Of a stretch of 5,507 nt of DNA, positions 1 through 5,507 are shown one piece after another. The DNA comes from a virus (lineage: Duplodnaviria > Heunggongvirae > Uroviricota > Caudoviricetes), in the IMG/VR virus record IMGVR_UViG_3300028485_000059, positions 1-5,507 of that record; one strand, given 5' to 3'. Below the pieces are notes generated by a model. The model saw nothing but the letters and a program-made list of their open reading frames with translations. It did not search any database and had not been told where the DNA came from. Position 1 is the stretch's first letter; the number at the start of each line of letters is the position of its first letter. Made by a program: the position numbers and the translations under genes.

Positions 1-103
1 AGAAACCGGAGAATGGCAGTGGACATTTCAGGTCGGGGACCTTGAAAACGTCAATATCACTCACTGGGCAGTAATGCCGAAAGCACCGGAGAATAAGAAA
101 TGA
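1..103 (+). CDS. 3' end of an upstream gene (partial; start lies outside the window)
   Basis: Frame open from base 2 to TGA at 101-103 (…ETGEWQWTFQVGDLENVNITHWAVMPKAPENKK*). The stop overlaps the next ATG (ATGA at 100-103), the same coupling pattern seen through the rest of the operon. No family recognised. Confidence 0.35.
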   Translation, partial: ETGEWQWTFQVGDLENVNITHWAVMPKAPENKK

Positions 104-303
104 GCGTGATAAAAACTCATACAGGAATTGTTATCACCCGAGACGGTCCGCAGGTAAAAAAACTGCACCAGACAAAGCGGATGTGGGTCGTCGGAAAAAA
201 CGAGTTTTACCACAAAGAAACCGGACGCCGCCACTTTGCAGAAAATACGCGCCGCCGACTGCTGATCGACAGCATCAAGCCTATCGAGGTGAAGCATGTT
301 TAA
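100..303 (+). CDS. hypothetical small phage protein (67 aa)
   Basis: ATG at 100 preceded by GGAGAA Shine-Dalgarno; stop TAA 301-303 overlaps the next start (ATGTTTAA). Part of the coupled operon. No motif recognised. Confidence 0.5.
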   Translation: MSVIKTHTGIVITRDGPQVKKLHQTKRMWVVGKNEFYHKETGRRHFAENTRRRLLIDSIKPIEVKHV

Positions 304-535
304 ACAGAACGAAAAATCTATCGCTCAAATTGCTGAGTATATCCCGCGTGCGTGCCGGGGTATGCAGTTGCAGGAAGCCAAAGCGCGCCTGGAGAAAAAA
401 ATTGCGCTCTATATCGATGACGGCTGTGATGCTGCCGTTCTTAACGCAGCGTTCGCGCCAGCTCTTAACAGTCATACGCGGGAGTCTTTTTTTTCGCGCA
501 TCGCAGCGCAGATCCGTAAAGGAGGCAACCAGTGA
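296..535 (+). CDS. hypothetical small phage protein (79 aa)
   Basis: ATG 296 with GAGGTGA Shine-Dalgarno 6 nt upstream; stop TGA 533-535 overlaps the GTG start of the next gene (GTGA). No motif recognised. Confidence 0.5.
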   Translation: MFKQNEKSIAQIAEYIPRACRGMQLQEAKARLEKKIALYIDDGCDAAVLNAAFAPALNSHTRESFFSRIAAQIRKGGNQ

Positions 536-1086
536 GCGAGATTAACTATCAGGCTCTGCGACTGGCGGCAGAAAATGCAACACCAGGCGAATGGTGTGCT
601 GATGACTACCATGGAGTAATTGCCGATGCCGGACTGAACGCCAATTACTACATAGCATCATGCTCAGGACCAGATAATCGCGCCAATAAACGATTCATAG
701 CCGCCGCCAATCCTGCCACCGTCTTGGCGCTGCTAGATGAGCTGGAAGCAGCAGAGAAGCGAAACGCTGAATTACAAAGCGAGAATGCATACATCCGCAA
801 CCGGTACAAAGAACTGGACCTATTAATCGGGAAAAACATTCTGGTCATGCAGGCTGCCATTATCGAATGGCAGGCAACTGGCGACGCTAAGAGCGGACTG
901 GCATGGATTTATAACACACTGTTTGGCCCTGGCGAATTACCGGACGAATCTGAGAAAGATGCTCAGGCCTACTTTAATCGCAAATATGCACCGATTGACG
1001 AAAAGCTCATGGCGCTTCACAAGTGGTTTTGGGAACAAAGTGAAGCCGAGCGCGCCGCCGCCAACATTGGTGTGAAGGGGAAGTGA
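532..1086 (+). CDS. Ead/Ea22-like family phage protein (184 aa)
   Basis: GTG start with strong AAAGGAGG Shine-Dalgarno. N-terminal QALRLAAENATPGEW and internal FIAAANPATVLALLDELEAAEKRNAEL match my recollection of the Ead/Ea22-like family of lambdoid/P22-like prophages. Assignment is from memory, not a search. Confidence 0.7.
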   Translation: MSEINYQALRLAAENATPGEWCADDYHGVIADAGLNANYYIASCSGPDNRANKRFIAAANPATVLALLDELEAAEKRNAELQSENAYIRNRYKELDLLIGKNILVMQAAIIEWQATGDAKSGLAWIYNTLFGPGELPDESEKDAQAYFNRKYAPIDEKLMALHKWFWEQSEAERAAANIGVKGK

Positions 1087-1087
1087 G

Positions 1088-1279
1088 ATGAACGGACAAA
1101 TCTCAATTGTTCGACCGGGAGCATGTGACGATTGCGAGATACGAATGATTATTCGTCTGGCGAGGGGGAAAACAATAACTGCTCTCATTACTCCTGAAAA
1201 TCTCGCATTAGCATTAACCGGAAAGTCAGACCTGCCAGTAGAGCTAAAGCTGCGAAATATTGAGATTAAAGTGAAATAG
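1088..1279 (+). CDS. hypothetical small phage protein (63 aa)
   Basis: ATG 1088 starts 2 nt after the upstream stop; AAGGGGAAG Shine-Dalgarno-like sequence. No motif recognised. Confidence 0.45.
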   Translation: MNGQISIVRPGACDDCEIRMIIRLARGKTITALITPENLALALTGKSDLPVELKLRNIEIKVK

Positions 1280-1281
1280 TT

Positions 1282-2040
1282 ATGAATACTCTTACCAAAG
1301 AATGGTTACAGAACACGATTACCGGAATTGAGTCGATAATAGACGATAAATCGTTTGTATGTAGTGAAATAGAATTCGAAATAGGTCAGGTTAACAACAT
1401 ACTTACCGCATTTAAAATTGCACTGGCATCGCTGGCAGCAGTATCGGATGAACGGGCAGCCTATGAATTATTTATGGAGAAGCGTTTCGGGGAATCTGTA
1501 GATCGCCGCAGGGCAAAAAATGGTGATAGAGAATACATGGCATGGGATATGGCGCTTGGCTGGATTATCTGGTGTCACCGCGCCGCCATGCTTCAGGGAG
1601 GCCAACCTGTAAACCAAACTTACAACTTGCCAGAATTAATCGAAGGCATGGAAGTTTCCATTGATGTTAGCACTTGTGATGCTGATTTAGGTAATCGCTA
1701 TTTCGGCACCGTCACCGAGGCGTTAGAACTTGATACAGCCAAGAATGGTTACATCCTCCTGGTTCAGGACGCAGAGCCTAACTTCGATGTAAATGGCAAC
1801 TCTCCGGGAACTCCGGATAGTTGGATAAGCTGTAGTGATCAAATGCCTGAAAAGGGCCAGAACGTGCTTATTTCGGTGAATTTCGATAGCTCTCTGGTTG
1901 AACCGCTAATATGCTCCGCACGCTATACCGGAAGCACCTTTCGGCGCGGAGATGCAACGATTAAGCCGGGTAATGGTATTGAGCAAGCAACTCACTGGAT
2001 GCCGCTACCGGAACCGCCGCAGGAGGTTAACCGTGGCTAA
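1282..2040 (+). CDS. DUF551 domain phage protein (252 aa; unassigned N-terminal region plus C-terminal DUF551)
   Basis: C-terminus WISCSDQMPEKGQNVLI…ATHWMPLPEPP matches the DUF551 signature as I recall it (W…LPE…THWMPLPEPP). Stop TAA 2038-2040 overlaps the downstream GTG start. Confidence 0.7.
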   Translation: MNTLTKEWLQNTITGIESIIDDKSFVCSEIEFEIGQVNNILTAFKIALASLAAVSDERAAYELFMEKRFGESVDRRRAKNGDREYMAWDMALGWIIWCHRAAMLQGGQPVNQTYNLPELIEGMEVSIDVSTCDADLGNRYFGTVTEALELDTAKNGYILLVQDAEPNFDVNGNSPGTPDSWISCSDQMPEKGQNVLISVNFDSSLVEPLICSARYTGSTFRRGDATIKPGNGIEQATHWMPLPEPPQEVNRG

Positions 2041-2314
2041 CCTGCAACTTGCCGTCAAAGGTGAATACTTCGATGCAATGATTCGCGGAGAGAAAACAGA
2101 AGAGTATCGCCTGTGTAATGACTACTGGAATAAGCGAATTATGTTCCGCGAGTATGACCGCCTGATTATCACAAAGGGATATCCGAAGCGCGACGACTAC
2201 AGCCGCAGAATTGATGTTCCGTATGACGGATATGAAATCAAGACAATCACACATCCACACTTCGGTGATAAACCGGTAAAGGTGTTCGCGATAAAGGTAA
2301 ATATTGATGGCTAA
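2033..2314 (+). CDS. ASCH/DUF3850-like (PUA-fold) domain protein (93 aa)
   Basis: The ORF track begins at 1952, but GTG at 2033 has a perfect AGGAGG Shine-Dalgarno 6 nt upstream and overlaps the previous stop (GTGGCTAA). N-terminal LQLAVKGEYFDAMIRGEKTEEYR resembles the ASCH/DUF3850 pattern (…YF..I..G.KT.E.R). Confidence 0.55.
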   Translation: MANLQLAVKGEYFDAMIRGEKTEEYRLCNDYWNKRIMFREYDRLIITKGYPKRDDYSRRIDVPYDGYEIKTITHPHFGDKPVKVFAIKVNIDG

Positions 2315-2645
2315 ATCAGCAGCAGAGCGCAAATCCGCTCAGAGAGCCAGACAAGCTGAATCCGGTGTACGTAAGCTGGAGATTGTGCTTGATGCTCAGG
2401 AAATTGAAATGCTGGAGCGTAACTGTGCCACGCGTCGCCCCGGGCGTGCGCCTTACGAATTTGGTGAGTATATAGCGTTACTGATCCGCCAGGATGATGT
2501 ACGCGTGCGCGGGCGTATAAAATCGATCAGCAGAAAACGTTGCGGTAAGTGCGGCGAGAGAGTTCCAGTTAATTCATGCCCGTGTAATGGTGACTCGCAA
2601 TGCTGGGTGACTAAAGGCTGGCATGAAACGAAATTAATAGTGTGA
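2307..2645 (+). CDS. hypothetical Cys-rich protein, putative DNA-binding/regulatory (112 aa)
   Basis: ATG 2307 overlaps the upstream stop (ATGGCTAA). C-terminal cysteine cluster CGKCGERVPVNSCPCNGDSQCW (C-x2-C-x9-C-x-C-x5-C) looks like a zinc ribbon. N-terminal RKLEIVLDAQEIEMLERN…YEFGEYIALLIRQ has strand-helix-helix character. Last gene before the terminase leader. Confidence 0.55.
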   Translation: MAKSAAERKSAQRARQAESGVRKLEIVLDAQEIEMLERNCATRRPGRAPYEFGEYIALLIRQDDVRVRGRIKSISRKRCGKCGERVPVNSCPCNGDSQCWVTKGWHETKLIV

Positions 2646-2653
2646 CATGTCAC
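2642..2653. promoter_or_regulatory. 12-bp perfect palindrome GTGACATGTCAC (copy 1), candidate protein-binding site
   Basis: Perfect dyad overlapping the stop codon of the Cys-rich gene. The 14-mer TGTGACATGTCACG recurs exactly at 4905-4918. Confidence 0.5.
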
Positions 2654-2693
2654 GAGTAGATTATGCATGATGAATTTGATGGTTTTGAATACT

Positions 2694-2720
2694 GCCGCCA
2701 ACTATGGCGGCTTTATTTTG
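2694..2720 (+). terminator. rho-independent terminator in the terS leader
   Basis: 7-bp GC-rich stem GCCGCCA / TGGCGGC (2694-2700, 2705-2711) with ACTA loop, followed by TTTATTTT (2712-2719). Confidence 0.65.
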
Positions 2721-2723
2721 CAT

Positions 2724-2754
2724 GGTACTATTACCAAAACGGTAACTATTACCA
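2724..2754. repeat. two tandem dyad-symmetric sites (GGTACTATTACCA / GGTAACTATTACCA) just upstream of terS
   Basis: Exact 10-mer ACTATTACCA at 2727-2736 and 2745-2754 (period 18 bp). Each unit is internally palindromic (GGTA-CTAT-TACC and GGTAA-CTA-TTACC). Confidence 0.5.
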
Positions 2755-2762
2755 CGGTGGTT

Positions 2763-3359
2763 ATGATGCCTGCTGAACCTAAAACCTATAAACGCAAATC
2801 AACGCAATTTAAGCCACTAACAGCAATGCAGGAGGCTTATTGCCAGTCATACATCAAAACGCCTGAAAACCAGACTCAGGCAGCGATTAATGCAGGATTC
2901 TCCCCAAATACAGCGGCAGTTAAAGCCAGTGTAATGATGCGCGATGAACGCATTCAAAAACGGATTGCCGAGTTGATGGAGGAGCGCAACAAACGAATGC
3001 GCGTCAGTGCTGATTACGTTCTCATGCGCCTGGTGGAGATCGACCAGATGGACGTGATCGACATCCTCAGCGACGATGGGAGCCTTAAACCAATCCATGA
3101 GTGGCCGAAAATCTGGCGCACTACGCTTAGCGGCTTTGATCTGTCATCGACCATCATGAACATGAACGAGGATTCGATAGAGACAATCCTCAAAAAAATT
3201 AAATGGCCTGACAAGGTGAAGAACCTCGAACTGATTGGTAAGCACGTCGACGTCAACGCGTTCAAAGAACGCATGGATGTTAATGTGAATGTGACAATCG
3301 CTGATCGCATAGCAGCAGCCAGGAAGCGACTCAAAGAACGTCAGGATGGTAATCAGTGA
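2763..3359 (+). CDS. terS: terminase small subunit (Terminase_2-like)
   Basis: QTQAAINAGFSPNTAAVKASVMMRDERIQKRIAEL matches the helix-turn-helix signature of Terminase_2-type small subunits. Stop overlaps the terL GTG start (GTGA at 3356-3359). Start set at ATG 2763 (ATG 2766 also possible) rather than the track's 2667, because 2667-2762 holds the terminator hairpin and the dyad repeats. Confidence 0.75.
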   Translation: MMPAEPKTYKRKSTQFKPLTAMQEAYCQSYIKTPENQTQAAINAGFSPNTAAVKASVMMRDERIQKRIAELMEERNKRMRVSADYVLMRLVEIDQMDVIDILSDDGSLKPIHEWPKIWRTTLSGFDLSSTIMNMNEDSIETILKKIKWPDKVKNLELIGKHVDVNAFKERMDVNVNVTIADRIAAARKRLKERQDGNQ

Positions 3360-4831
3360 CAGATACAGCGTTATCTCCTGAAGAGCAGTTGATCGAGGAT
3401 ATTGCAGGGTTCACTCACGATCCGCTTGGCTATGCCCTCTATGCGTTCCCGTGGGGGGAAGAGGGGACTGAATTAGCACATGCCACCGGTCCACGTCAGT
3501 GGCAAGCCGATGCGTTCCGAGAGATACGTGATCACCTGCAGAATCCAGAGACGCGCCATCAGCCGCTTATGCTGGCACGCGCTTCGGGGCACGGTATTGG
3601 TAAATCAGCATTCATCTCAATGCTGATCAACTGGGGCATGTCCACTTGCGAGGATTGTAAGGTCGTGGTGACCGCCAACACCGAAAACCAGCTACGAACG
3701 AAGACCTGGCCGGAAATTATCAAGTGGTCGAACCTTGCTATCACGAAAGACTGGTTTACCTGTACCGCTACCGAGATGTACAGCAATGATCCTGGGCACG
3801 ACAAGCGGTGGCGAGCTGACGCAATCCCCTGGTCTGAGCACAACACTGAGGCATTCGCCGGACTACACAACGAGCGTAAACGCATCATCGTGGTATTTGA
3901 TGAAGCGTCGAACATTGCGGATCTGGTGTGGGAAGTTGCCGAGGGTGCGCTAACGGACGAAGACACTGAGATTATCTGGGTGGCGTTCGGAAACCCTACA
4001 CGTAACACCGGGCGTTTTCGCGAATGTTTCCGCAAATATAAACACCGCTGGAAAACTGCGCAGATTGACAGCCGGACGGTGGAAGGCACTAACAAACAGC
4101 AGTTGCAGAAATGGGTTGATGACTACGGGGAAGACAGCGACTTCGTTAAAATCCGTGTGCGCGGCATATTCCCTGATGCATCTGAATTGCAGTTTATCCC
4201 TACCGGACTTACTGACGAGGCAATGAAACGGGTGATAACCGCTGCGCAGGTGGCACATGCTCCGGTGATAATCGGCGTTGACCCGGCATACTCTGGTGTT
4301 GATGACGCTGTGATATACCTGCGGCAGGGGCTGCACAGTAAGGTGCTGTGGACTGGCAACAAGACCACTGACGATCTGATTATGGCGAAGCGTATCGCTG
4401 ACTTTGAAGACCAGTACCAGGCTGACGCAGTGTTCATCGACTTCGGTTACGGAACTGGTCTGAAGTCAATCGGTGACGGCTGGGGGCGTACATGGCAACT
4501 TGTTCCGTTCGGTGGCGCGTCTACTGACCCACAGATGCTCAACAAGCGTGGAGAGATGTTCAACTCATGCAAGACATGGCTGAGGCTGGGCGGCATGCTT
4601 GATGACCAGGAAACAGCGGACGATCTGTCGGCGGCAGAGTACAAAGTTCGAGTGGACGGTAAAATCGTTATCGAACCGAAGGAAGATATCAAAGAACGAC
4701 TTGGGCGTTCTCCTGGTAAAGGCGATGCGCTACTGCTGACGTTTGCGTTCCCTGTGTCGAAGCGTCTGCGAATTCCCGGTCAGCAGAACCAGCAAGGCAA
4801 TGCCATCACAGATTACGATCCCTATGCTTAA
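3356..4831 (+). CDS. terL: terminase large subunit (ATPase plus nuclease), 491 aa
   Basis: Walker A-like ASGHGIGKS, Walker B RIIVVFDEAS, and C-terminal RNase H-like nuclease motif VIIGVDPAYSG…DDAV. Length and position directly after terS fit. GTG start coupled to the terS stop. Confidence 0.9.
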   Translation: MTDTALSPEEQLIEDIAGFTHDPLGYALYAFPWGEEGTELAHATGPRQWQADAFREIRDHLQNPETRHQPLMLARASGHGIGKSAFISMLINWGMSTCEDCKVVVTANTENQLRTKTWPEIIKWSNLAITKDWFTCTATEMYSNDPGHDKRWRADAIPWSEHNTEAFAGLHNERKRIIVVFDEASNIADLVWEVAEGALTDEDTEIIWVAFGNPTRNTGRFRECFRKYKHRWKTAQIDSRTVEGTNKQQLQKWVDDYGEDSDFVKIRVRGIFPDASELQFIPTGLTDEAMKRVITAAQVAHAPVIIGVDPAYSGVDDAVIYLRQGLHSKVLWTGNKTTDDLIMAKRIADFEDQYQADAVFIDFGYGTGLKSIGDGWGRTWQLVPFGGASTDPQMLNKRGEMFNSCKTWLRLGGMLDDQETADDLSAAEYKVRVDGKIVIEPKEDIKERLGRSPGKGDALLLTFAFPVSKRLRIPGQQNQQGNAITDYDPYA

Positions 4832-4870
4832 TCCGCTGGTGGGGATAATGTCGTTGATATCCTCTGGTGA

Positions 4871-4907
4871 GGATAAAACAAAGCCAGCTCATAGGCTGGC
4901 TGTTTGT
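4871..4907. terminator. bidirectional intrinsic terminator between convergent terL and the DUF2829 gene
   Basis: Stem AGCCAGC / GCTGGCT (4882-4888, 4895-4901), loop TCATAG. On the - strand it is followed by UUUGUUUUAU (strong); on the + strand by GUUUGU (weaker). A second hairpin TATCCTC-TGGT-GAGGATA lies at 4858-4875. Confidence 0.6.
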
Positions 4908-4917
4908 GACATGTCAC
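4906..4917. promoter_or_regulatory. 12-bp perfect palindrome GTGACATGTCAC (copy 2)
   Basis: Exact repeat of the 14-mer TGTGACATGTCACG seen at 2641-2654; sits between the bidirectional terminator and the stop of the - strand DUF2829 gene. Confidence 0.5.
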
Positions 4918-4921
4918 GGTG

Positions 4922-5218
4922 TTATTGAATTACAATCCAATCATCAGATAGCAGATCGGTTTGAGATGCCAGCCACGGTACAAAGCAACCGTCAGCAGTT
5001 TTCATCCCAATCCACGGTAGAAGTTTAACGCCAGGTACAAATGTATACTCGTCACCGCATGTAACGTCAAATCGCCAATCGTTCGGAGTGGCCGATTGCG
5101 GTGGCTTAACCAGTTGCAGATACATGCCTTTGCCATTCCATCCGGCACGTGCAATGCGCTTACCATCTTTGAGTGATGACAAAGCAGTGGAGAAAGATAC
5201 TGTTGATGTTTCGCTCAT
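4922..5218 (-). CDS. DUF2829 family protein (Tad2-like; candidate anti-defence protein), 98 aa
   Basis: ATG at 5218 (- strand) with AAGGTGAG Shine-Dalgarno. Motifs ARAGWNGKGMYLQL and KTADGCFVPWLASQTDLLSDDWIVI match the DUF2829 signature as I recall it (GWNGKGM…MKTADG…PWLASQTDMLAEDW). Flanked by intrinsic terminators on both sides and on the opposite strand to the terminase operon. Confidence 0.7.
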   Translation of the reverse strand: MSETSTVSFSTALSSLKDGKRIARAGWNGKGMYLQLVKPPQSATPNDWRFDVTCGDEYTFVPGVKLLPWIGMKTADGCFVPWLASQTDLLSDDWIVIQ

Positions 5219-5229
5219 AATCTCACCTT

Positions 5230-5253
5230 AAAAAAATGCCCGGCGAACCGGGC
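5230..5253 (-). terminator. rho-independent terminator (T2) immediately upstream of the DUF2829 gene
   Basis: On the - strand: GCCCGG-UUCG-CCGGGC (6-bp GC stem, UUCG tetraloop) followed by A + U7, then directly the Shine-Dalgarno of the DUF2829 gene. Confidence 0.7.
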
Positions 5254-5330
5254 GAACTGGAAGCAATGAGTTATGCCTTCCGTTGCTGTACGGGTTTACA
5301 GCATGAAGTCATCGCAATGGCGTCCTGCTG

Positions 5331-5373
5331 TAAAAAGGGCGGTGATAGTCCTTCAAGGGAAACCATCACCGCC
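5331..5373 (-). terminator. rho-independent terminator (T1) downstream of the tRNA gene
   Basis: On the - strand: 9-bp stem GGCGGTGAT / ATCACCGCC (5365-5373 / 5338-5346) around an 18-nt partly paired loop, followed by CUUUUUAC. Lies about 43 nt past the tRNA 3' end. Confidence 0.6.
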
Positions 5374-5416
5374 AAGCACCTGGAACTTCTGGCATCACGG
5401 TCCTTAGGCGTGATTC

Positions 5417-5493
5417 TGGCGTGGCATGCAGGATTCGAACCTGCGACCAACCGCTTAGAAGGCGGTTGCTCTGTCCAGCTGAGCTAATGCCAC
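5417..5493 (-). tRNA. tRNA-Arg (anticodon UCU), 77 nt including encoded CCA
   Basis: Reverse complement folds as a cloverleaf: acceptor GTGGCAT/ATGCCAC (7 bp), D-arm GCTC…GAGC, anticodon stem ACCGC/GCGGT with loop CU-UCU-AA, T-arm GCAGG-TTCGAAT-CCTGC, discriminator G, CCA. T-arm matches enterobacterial argU as recalled, but the acceptor and anticodon stems differ. Confidence 0.85.
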
Positions 5494-5507
5494 AACGCTG
5501 AGAGCAC

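Follow-up and report, generated by a model that had tools for sequence, protein, structure and literature searches.

A 5.5-kb viral terminase region, very probably from an Escherichia coli Uetakevirus, with a Tad2-like gene in a conserved cargo slot

Epsilon15 (the type species; NC_004775) and phiV10 (NC_007804) are temperate podophages of the genus Uetakevirus, and a single gene order is common to the full annotated maps of both, of phage PAS61, and of the guaA-integrated prophage of strain M21816. In the left part of this map lie a repressor and a cro-like gene, DnaT-/P-type replication genes, a DUF1064 gene, and accessory genes of the Eae/Ead/Ea22-DUF551-ASCH type. The middle part comprises the gp49/p55 regulator, the terminase genes terS and terL, a terminator, one or two minus-strand genes and, where annotated (M21816 and some other relatives), a tRNA-Arg gene. 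Following this tRNA slot are a gene of 68 amino acids (aa), the portal, protease and major capsid genes, and so on to the tailspike, past which phiV10 and epsilon15 carry O-antigen modification genes, holin, endolysin and spanins, then attP and the integrase. The lysis cassette of these two phages thus lies ~20 kb downstream, after the tailspike, and a P4-type integrase stands beside attP (guaA) in phiV10, epsilon15 and M21816. The genus map contains no Q gene, and neither Q nor a lysis cassette is found between the regulator and terS. Here, we analyze positions 1 to 5,507 of the virus record IMGVR_UViG_3300028485_000059 (5,507 nucleotides [nt]; hereafter, the window). We conclude that this stretch is very probably an internal, intact segment of an E. 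coli Uetakevirus, i.e., an epsilon15/phiV10-like temperate podophage present as a free genome or a prophage, and that its gene order is the canonical one already known from the published epsilon15 and phiV10 maps.

The closest relatives place the window within that map. When compared with 5426 E. coli genomes and 50,697 phage records, its best DNA matches (96-97% identity) were PAS61, O157 typing phages 9 and 10, ZX5, TL-2011b and phiV10, with epsilon15 at 81%. The terS-terL pair is homologous to epsilon15 gp1/gp2 (81% nt identity over 2720-4822; 97% to phiV10), and positions 1063-5507 are matched at 96.7% by ZX5, a plaque-forming phage that lysogenises at guaA and has a burst of ~700 (PMC9782041). 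Together with its continuation on near-identical contigs (see below), the window shares with phiV10, PAS61, ZX5 and O157 typing phages 9/10 the order ASCH, p55 regulator, terS, terL, terminator, minus-strand cargo, tRNA region, p06 and portal, at 96-97% nt identity over ~2022-4927 and 5220-5507 and with copies of a 12-bp palindrome at matching places. It differs from this group in its cargo, which in the relatives is an N4 gp49/Sf6 gp66-family protein (phiV10 p03, PF13876) or a 140-aa protein (PAS61) rather than a Tad2-like one, and in the accessory genes left of ~1416-2030, which are other alleles or cassettes. Epsilon15 likewise has gp44-49, gp1 (terS), gp2 (terL), a minus-strand p50, gp3 and gp4 (portal) in this order, lysis genes after the tailspike, a terminator and a repressor site annotated in the gp49-terS interval, and all three palindrome copies; it differs in being only ~80% identical, in having no tRNA annotated in the slot, and in its other accessory and O-antigen conversion genes. 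Finally, all eight non-redundant E. coli prophage loci that encode the exact Tad2-like protein share the layout of the window.

Protein families were assigned using Pfam, PHROG, NCBIfam, PADLOC and a PDB profile search, and RNAs using ARAGORN and Rfam. Ten plus-strand open reading frames (ORFs) run head to tail over 100-4831, and the features of the window are as follows (window positions; positions in other records are given with their accession or our L-number, PAS61 being L001, phiV10 L002 and epsilon15 L023).

1-103, plus strand: 3' end of an upstream accessory ORF (window position 1 equals position 9470 of the lambdoid prophage L007, whose 120-aa gene ends at 9572)
100-303, plus strand: 67-aa accessory early protein, no assigned function (phrog_1226, 2.2e-42)
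296-535, plus strand: 79-aa accessory early protein, no assigned function (phrog_1344, 2e-52)
532-1086, plus strand: Ead/Ea22-like protein, 184 aa (PF13935, 1.6e-19)
1088-1279, plus strand: 63-aa accessory protein, no assigned function (phrog_1222, 2.6e-40)
1282-2040, plus strand: DUF551 protein, 252 aa, holding a mosaic joint (PF04448, 4.5e-21)
2033-2314, plus strand: 93-aa ASCH-like protein, homologue of phiV10 p54 (phrog_625, 1.2e-49; RefSeq homologue name)
2307-2645, plus strand: gp49-family putative regulator, 112 aa, with a conserved Cys cluster (phrog_536 "transcriptional regulator", 1.1e-53)
2642-2653: palindrome GTGACATGTCAC, copy 1, 12 bp and perfect, with the TGA stop of the gp49-family gene inside it (kept in epsilon15, phiV10 and PAS61)
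2694-2720, plus strand: terminator-like hairpin GCCGCCAACTATGGCGGC with a T-run, between the early operon and terS (the epsilon15 counterpart, 39646-39672, is annotated as a rho-independent terminator)
2731-2763: two operator-like inverted repeats TTACC-N5-GGTAA (2731-2745 perfect; 2749-2763 with one mismatch)
2766-3359, plus strand: terS, likeliest start ATG 2766, 197 aa (PF03592, 1.8e-29)
3356-4831, plus strand: terL, 491 aa, intact (phrog_2, 2.6e-53; phrog_5902, 9.4e-100)
4858-4901: two hairpins between the convergent genes, of which 4882-4901 is GC-rich and terminator-like (the phiV10 counterpart, 2238-2257, is annotated as a terminator)
4906-4917: palindrome GTGACATGTCAC, copy 2, at the left edge of the swappable cargo cassette (alignment to relatives with other cargo breaks here)
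4922-5218, minus strand: Tad2-like (DUF2829) protein, 98 aa, a predicted gcADPR sponge (PF11195, 3.2e-24)
5229-5253, minus strand: hairpin GCCCGGTTCGCCGGGC with a T7 run, at the right edge of the swappable cassette, just upstream of the Tad2-like ribosome-binding site
5338-5373, minus strand: terminator-like hairpin with a 14-bp stem, downstream of the tRNA (hairpin analysis)
5417-5493, minus strand: tRNA-Arg, anticodon TCT, reading AGA (ARAGORN; Rfam RF00005, 71.7 bits, the sole match in the Rfam scan of the window)

Much of what a first-pass annotation had named from the sequence was borne out by these scans. The Ead/Ea22, DUF551, terS and terL genes on the plus strand have their family matches (PF13935, PF04448, PF03592 and phrog_2, respectively), no ORF of the window matched a holin, endolysin or spanin family in Pfam or PHROG, and a DUF2829 gene and a tRNA-Arg gene do lie convergently after terL. 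Its ASCH call is weak, the Pfam ASCH model scoring below cut-off (E=0.065), and depends on phrog_625 and the names of the RefSeq homologues. As TerL gave neither a Pfam nor a PDB sequence match, its identity follows from the PHROG matches and synteny; its translation shows a Walker A-like GHGIGKS and an IIVVFDEAS motif, and its length equals that of phiV10 p02 and epsilon15 gp2. A terminator had also been placed at the end of the plus-strand operon; the GC-rich hairpin at 4882-4901 is indeed there, but its T-run is better on the minus strand, which makes it no less suited to the cargo gene than to terL.

The same annotation had taken the module order to be atypical, an impression that arises because the order was judged against lambda, whereas the late region is that of a Uetakevirus and not lambdoid. 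Measured against complete relatives, the order is the standard one: the rightward early operon closes with the Ead/Ea22, DUF551, ASCH and gp49 regulator genes upstream of terS. The genes it had called nin-type are instead ea-type accessory genes, which in lambdoid prophages sit in the leftward operon beside xis/int, and terS does not follow the early genes directly, since a gp49-family gene (2307-2645) that had been overlooked and a 120-nt non-coding region lie in between. The ea-type genes themselves are literally shared with lambdoid phages, and the junction resembles the lambda late switch (Q, pR', tR') in that a small regulator is the last early gene and is followed by a DNA site, a terminator and the late genes. 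Unlike lambda, the window lacks a Q homologue and a lysis cassette between regulator and terS, and its accessory genes are in a rightward operon. A promoter that would suit a Q-like model was sought at 2642-2671 and set aside, the match being weak (9/12) and not conserved in phage ZF40. Lambda is thus the wrong yardstick for ea-type genes found beside terminase genes.

Whether the packaging operon is cut off after terL, as had been proposed, was decided by near-identical contigs that run past the window. Exact-protein look-ups retrieved such contigs for the right 75% of the window only. One of them, the 5099-bp IMG/VR contig L024, matches window 1925-5507 without a difference (100% identity) and then adds another 1516 bp; past the tRNA, it carries an operator-like TTACCTGAAAGGTAA (L024 3892-3906), a 68-aa gp3-like ORF, and a portal ORF that is open to the contig end (N-terminal 294 residues; PF12236, 3.1e-110). 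The portal starts 1310 nt after the terL stop, i.e., 635 nt past the window end, and the apparent truncation is an effect of where the window stops. A metagenomic contig of 39,621 bp (L229) differs from window 1416-5507 at one base in 4092 (99.976% identity) and has recombination, immunity and replication genes upstream and a complete head module downstream. Across L024 and L229, the slot is followed by the Uetakevirus head order, namely portal (Head-tail_con), Bbp19, protease, GP7 capsid, Bbp16 and a gp10-like gene. The first-pass annotation had itself named a conventional phage map, with lysis and head genes nearby in standard order, as the finding that would speak against an atypical element, and both the flanks and the intact relatives have the head genes (portal, protease, major capsid, tail) directly after the slot. 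By that standard its interpretation is refuted, except for the cargo cassette.

Several points weigh against placing the window in an ordinary Uetakevirus. Among the 5426 E. coli genomes and 50,697 phage records, none covered 80% or more of the full window; the lysis and integrase modules of this element are predicted from its relatives; the transcript boundaries and regulator roles discussed below are likewise predicted from sequence; and the data start at position 1, with 1-2027 closest (99%) to lambdoid prophages, such that the left side could be an unusual hybrid.

The last of these points is the basis of the strongest alternative, in which a Uetakevirus late region has on its left an early region from a lambdoid or some other type of phage, forming a hybrid or tandem element whose genome is not a standard Uetakevirus. 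Positions 1-2027 are 99.1-99.2% identical to lambdoid prophages (L007, L010, L011) and phage mEp460, in whose genomes the cassette belongs to the leftward, cI-side operon, which in L003-L005 and L008 continues to xis/int; the exact DUF551 protein was found only in such lambdoid contexts beside xis/int. In addition, E. coli APEC17 has genes of another phage type (dnaB, tRNAs and tail proteins) in front of the same orf67-orf79-Ea22 cassette and Uetakevirus late genes. On the other hand, standard Uetakeviruses (M21816, PAS61, and epsilon15 gp44-48) hold these same gene families at the same place, and parts of window 1-1300 are also found in Uetakevirus contigs that are in other respects ordinary. 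Uetakevirus identity (to L229) begins at 1416 and lambdoid-type identity ends at 2027, which puts the crossover within 1416-2027, in the shared part of the DUF551 gene, and a crossover inside a shared gene is a signature of cassette exchange by homologous recombination. We consider a hybrid genome quite unlikely on this evidence. The mosaic left third is best read as ordinary cassette exchange among temperate coliphages, which also accounts for why no single record spans the window. The APEC17 locus (L227/L228; NZ_CP178203.1, ~3.474-3.506 Mb), with dnaB, three tRNAs and tail proteins ahead of its Uetakevirus late genes and several pseudogenes, is a tandem or hybrid prophage. As a separate observation on the left part, Ea22 residues 72-173 (window 745-1050) match the PADLOC DpdH model (E=2.8e-37), with no other Dpd component nearby.

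Two further readings had been offered by the first-pass annotation. A decayed cryptic prophage that has lost its head and lysis genes would explain why no lysis, portal or capsid gene is present inside the 5.5-kb window, but the portal begins just past the window end on the 100%-identical contig, a complete head module is present on the 99.98%-identical one, and lysis genes never stand beside terS in this genus. Moreover, the ORFs are free of frameshifts and truncations, and their lengths (terL 491 aa, gp49-family 112 aa, ASCH-like 93 aa) are those of isolated, plaque-forming phages, so we regard the chance of decay as slimmer still than that of a hybrid. That non-structural cargo comes after terS and terL within the window might suggest a helper-dependent phage satellite (a PICI or capsid-forming PICI-like element) keeping packaging genes only, yet this has a negligible probability, as the neighborhoods of all close relatives are complete 39-40-kb phages with their own replication, head, tail and lysis genes, and no integrase/AlpA/primase block of satellite type adjoins, the upstream genes of the relatives being DnaT, P and DUF1064. 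The window should therefore be labelled neither a decayed prophage nor a satellite. With the gene order itself mattering little once the window is assigned to a Uetakevirus, only the linkage between the gp49 family and its palindrome and the Tad2-like occupant of the cargo slot might repay further work.

Between the early operon and terS, the order is the gp49-family gene (end 2645), palindrome GTGACATGTCAC, the hairpin with its T-run, the two TTACC-N5-GGTAA repeats, and terS. The epsilon15 counterpart of this repeat is annotated as a repressor binding site. In phiV10, we counted 14 such sites versus 0.64 expected (16 in the M21816 prophage); they flank the repressor gene and precede terS, the portal operon, the tailspike, the lysis genes and p45, i.e., nearly every transcription unit. 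The start of terS is inconsistent among public records, which give proteins of 230, 224 or 197 aa and ORF versions from 2667 or 2685. The longer versions would contain the terminator-like hairpin and the operators; we prefer ATG 2766 (197 aa) because a GGTGG lies at 2756-2760 and the resulting protein begins with MPAEPK, as does epsilon15 gp1. This arrangement is consistent with a model in which early transcription would largely end at the 2694-2720 terminator, terS-terL would form a separately controlled unit, and the gp49-family protein, together with the TTACC-N5-GGTAA operators, would control that early-late switch.

The gp49 family, to which epsilon15 gp49, phiV10 p55 and N15 gp46 belong, is physically linked to the palindrome across divergent homologues. 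GTGACATGTCAC is present twice in the window versus 0.17 expected even with two mismatches allowed. Each Uetakevirus genome has three copies in homologous positions, one at the stop codon of gp49, one immediately past the terL terminator, and one where the long structural operon ends; this holds for epsilon15 too, although its flanks are only ~80% identical. The extra exact copies (phiV10 2262 and 19493; epsilon15 2142 and 19517; PAS61 14608 and 32674), which stand at the 3' ends of both the terS-terL unit and the structural operon, each lie directly against a terminator hairpin and at the border of a variable cargo region on the minus strand; the slot variant with a 281-aa ORF lacks copy 2. 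Homologues of the gp49-family gene were found in 158 phage records, including ZF40, P2-like Yersinia phages, N15, Kpn74, and Vibrio, Aeromonas and Pseudomonas phages; the gene invariably closes the rightward early operon or lies close to its end. In most of them, the stop codon is overlapped or adjoined by a GTGAC-NN-GTCAC palindrome even though protein identity is 32-38% and the last residues differ, as seen in the ZF40, Yersinia P2-like, N15, Kpn74 and Vibrio lineages. In a scan of one genome per species, the palindrome fell within -15 to +60 of the stop in 25 of 35 genomes, usually with the TGA inside, versus a chance expectation of 0.2 in all 212 kb of that set; 229 kb of control DNA without the gene gave 0 matches.

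As to the nature of this pair, the gp49 family had no meaningful relative in Pfam, NCBIfam, PADLOC or the PDB profile search, the homologue search at >=75% identity returned only unnamed ("hypothetical") proteins, and a scan of IMG/VR with a diverse family alignment retrieved close relatives only. An AlphaFold model built from 36 homologues was too poor to use (pLDDT 61.5). The palindrome sequence was not found in the literature searched, the original phage genome papers lying outside that search, and the phiV10 reporter-phage and epsilon15 packaging papers contained nothing on gene order or on pac/cos sites. We tentatively propose that the gp49-family protein and the stop-codon palindrome could be an undescribed regulator-operator pair at the early-late boundary, positioned like Q/pR', a suggestion that we hold to be a real possibility somewhat short of probable. 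Such a pair would gate the step that leads out of the early operon to terS and the late genes, and it may be widespread among the temperate phages of Enterobacterales, Vibrio and related hosts, with podo-, myo-, P2-like and N15-like phages included; if true, the linkage would give a handle on the late-expression switch in Uetakeviruses and many unrelated phages. Two other roles for the palindrome were considered. CRP sites have TGTGA/TCACA half-sites, as does the palindrome, but with a spacing of 6 bases rather than 4, and a CRP/FNR-type host site was set aside since the palindrome tracks the phage gene and not host promoters. A pac site is unlikely, as each genome has three copies and as P2-like and N15-like phages, whose packaging systems are different, carry the palindrome as well. 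We also observed that in Serratia and Symbiopectobacterium (L205-L207), where the palindrome is missing, a LexA-box-like TACTGT-N8-ACAGTA lies just after the gp49-family stop, and that a Yersinia P2-like phage (L105, ~4440-4480) has both sites.

The region between terL and the portal was surveyed in L024-L103, L001, L002, L022 and L023. In all 81 Uetakevirus loci with both genes, the terL-portal gap measures 1041-2203 nt and constitutes a conserved variable cargo slot that is normal for the genus. Its occupants comprise N4 gp49/Sf6 gp66-family proteins (PF13876; ~40 loci), a 139-143-aa protein (phrog_4846; ~19 loci), 110-aa and 115-aa proteins, a 246-281-aa membrane/coiled-coil protein, and the Tad2-like gene; at least six unrelated occupants are present in all, phrog_27507 and phrog_3163 being among the families represented. 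An empty allele of 1041 nt keeps only the ribosome-binding site and an 8-codon stub. When the window is aligned to relatives whose cargo differs, the match is lost at 4917-4930 and regained at 5211-5230. What is swapped is the coding sequence alone; its 3' flank (palindrome and hairpins) and its 5' flank (ribosome-binding site and hairpin 5238-5253) are conserved. The suggestion that a cargo cassette had been inserted thus holds insofar as the slot is variable, but the slot is a regular, genus-wide feature and not a disruption of the packaging operon.

As in moron or accessory hot spots, e.g., those among the head-tail genes of HK97 and lambda relatives, one ORF is swapped between conserved flanks, its transcription opposes that of the late operon, terminator-like hairpins enclose it, and an "empty" version exists. 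The slot differs from these hot spots in that no separate promoter was identified within it: a search for one serving the minus-strand cargo gene returned no promoter-like site, and terminator-like hairpins stand on both sides. Hairpin GCCCGGTTCGCCGGGC and its T7 run lie ~10 nt upstream of the Tad2-like ribosome-binding site, so close that no promoter could fit between this terminator and the start codon, and epsilon15 p50 has the same layout (stem-loop 2559-2582). The terL-portal gap of Uetakeviruses is thus a clean cargo slot with conserved flanks.

The exact Tad2-like protein occurs in 357 index blocks of assemblies, and in all eight places listed it is in this slot. It scores 85.7 bits against PF11195 (cut-off 25; residues 8-97) and matches seven solved Tad2/AcrIIA7 chains (phmmer, E = 3e-15 to 6e-12). 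It shares the domain and the gcADPR-contact motifs of the Tad2 sponges (SPO1 gp34.65, HgmTad2 [= AcrIIA7], SptTad2 and ModTad2), and in an alignment to 8kbi its motifs GWNGKGM and WLASQTD are identical to those of HgmTad2. HgmTad2 contacts gcADPR through W21, N22, G23, W87, S90, T92 and D93, and mutation of W21, N22, S90, T92 or D93 abolishes gcADPR binding (PMC10680739). Unlike HgmTad2, the window protein has a shorter beta2-beta5 insertion, the element that forms the cyclic-dinucleotide pocket, and the pocket residues R31, S47, F70 and N85 are not conserved or not alignable; binding of a CBASS signal is consequently not predicted. We predict that this protein is a gcADPR sponge countering type I Thoeris, in which capacity it would sequester the Thoeris signal gcADPR. 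The presence of a Tad2-like occupant in turn suggests that the other slot occupants are candidate defence or counter-defence genes.

The tRNA-Arg(tct) gene is present in 79 of the 84 Uetakevirus loci. AGA usage is 6-8 per thousand in phiV10 genes, several-fold higher than in E. coli (~2 per thousand), which fits a role in which tRNA-Arg(UCU) would support AGA-rich genes of the phage. Within the window, AGA encodes 4 of the 15 arginines of the gp49-family gene and none of those in terS, terL or the Tad2-like gene. An 83-aa plus-strand ORF (5236-5487) runs antisense to the tRNA-Arg; it is entered as CDS p04 in the phiV10 record, which lists no tRNA, and is probably a spurious gene call.

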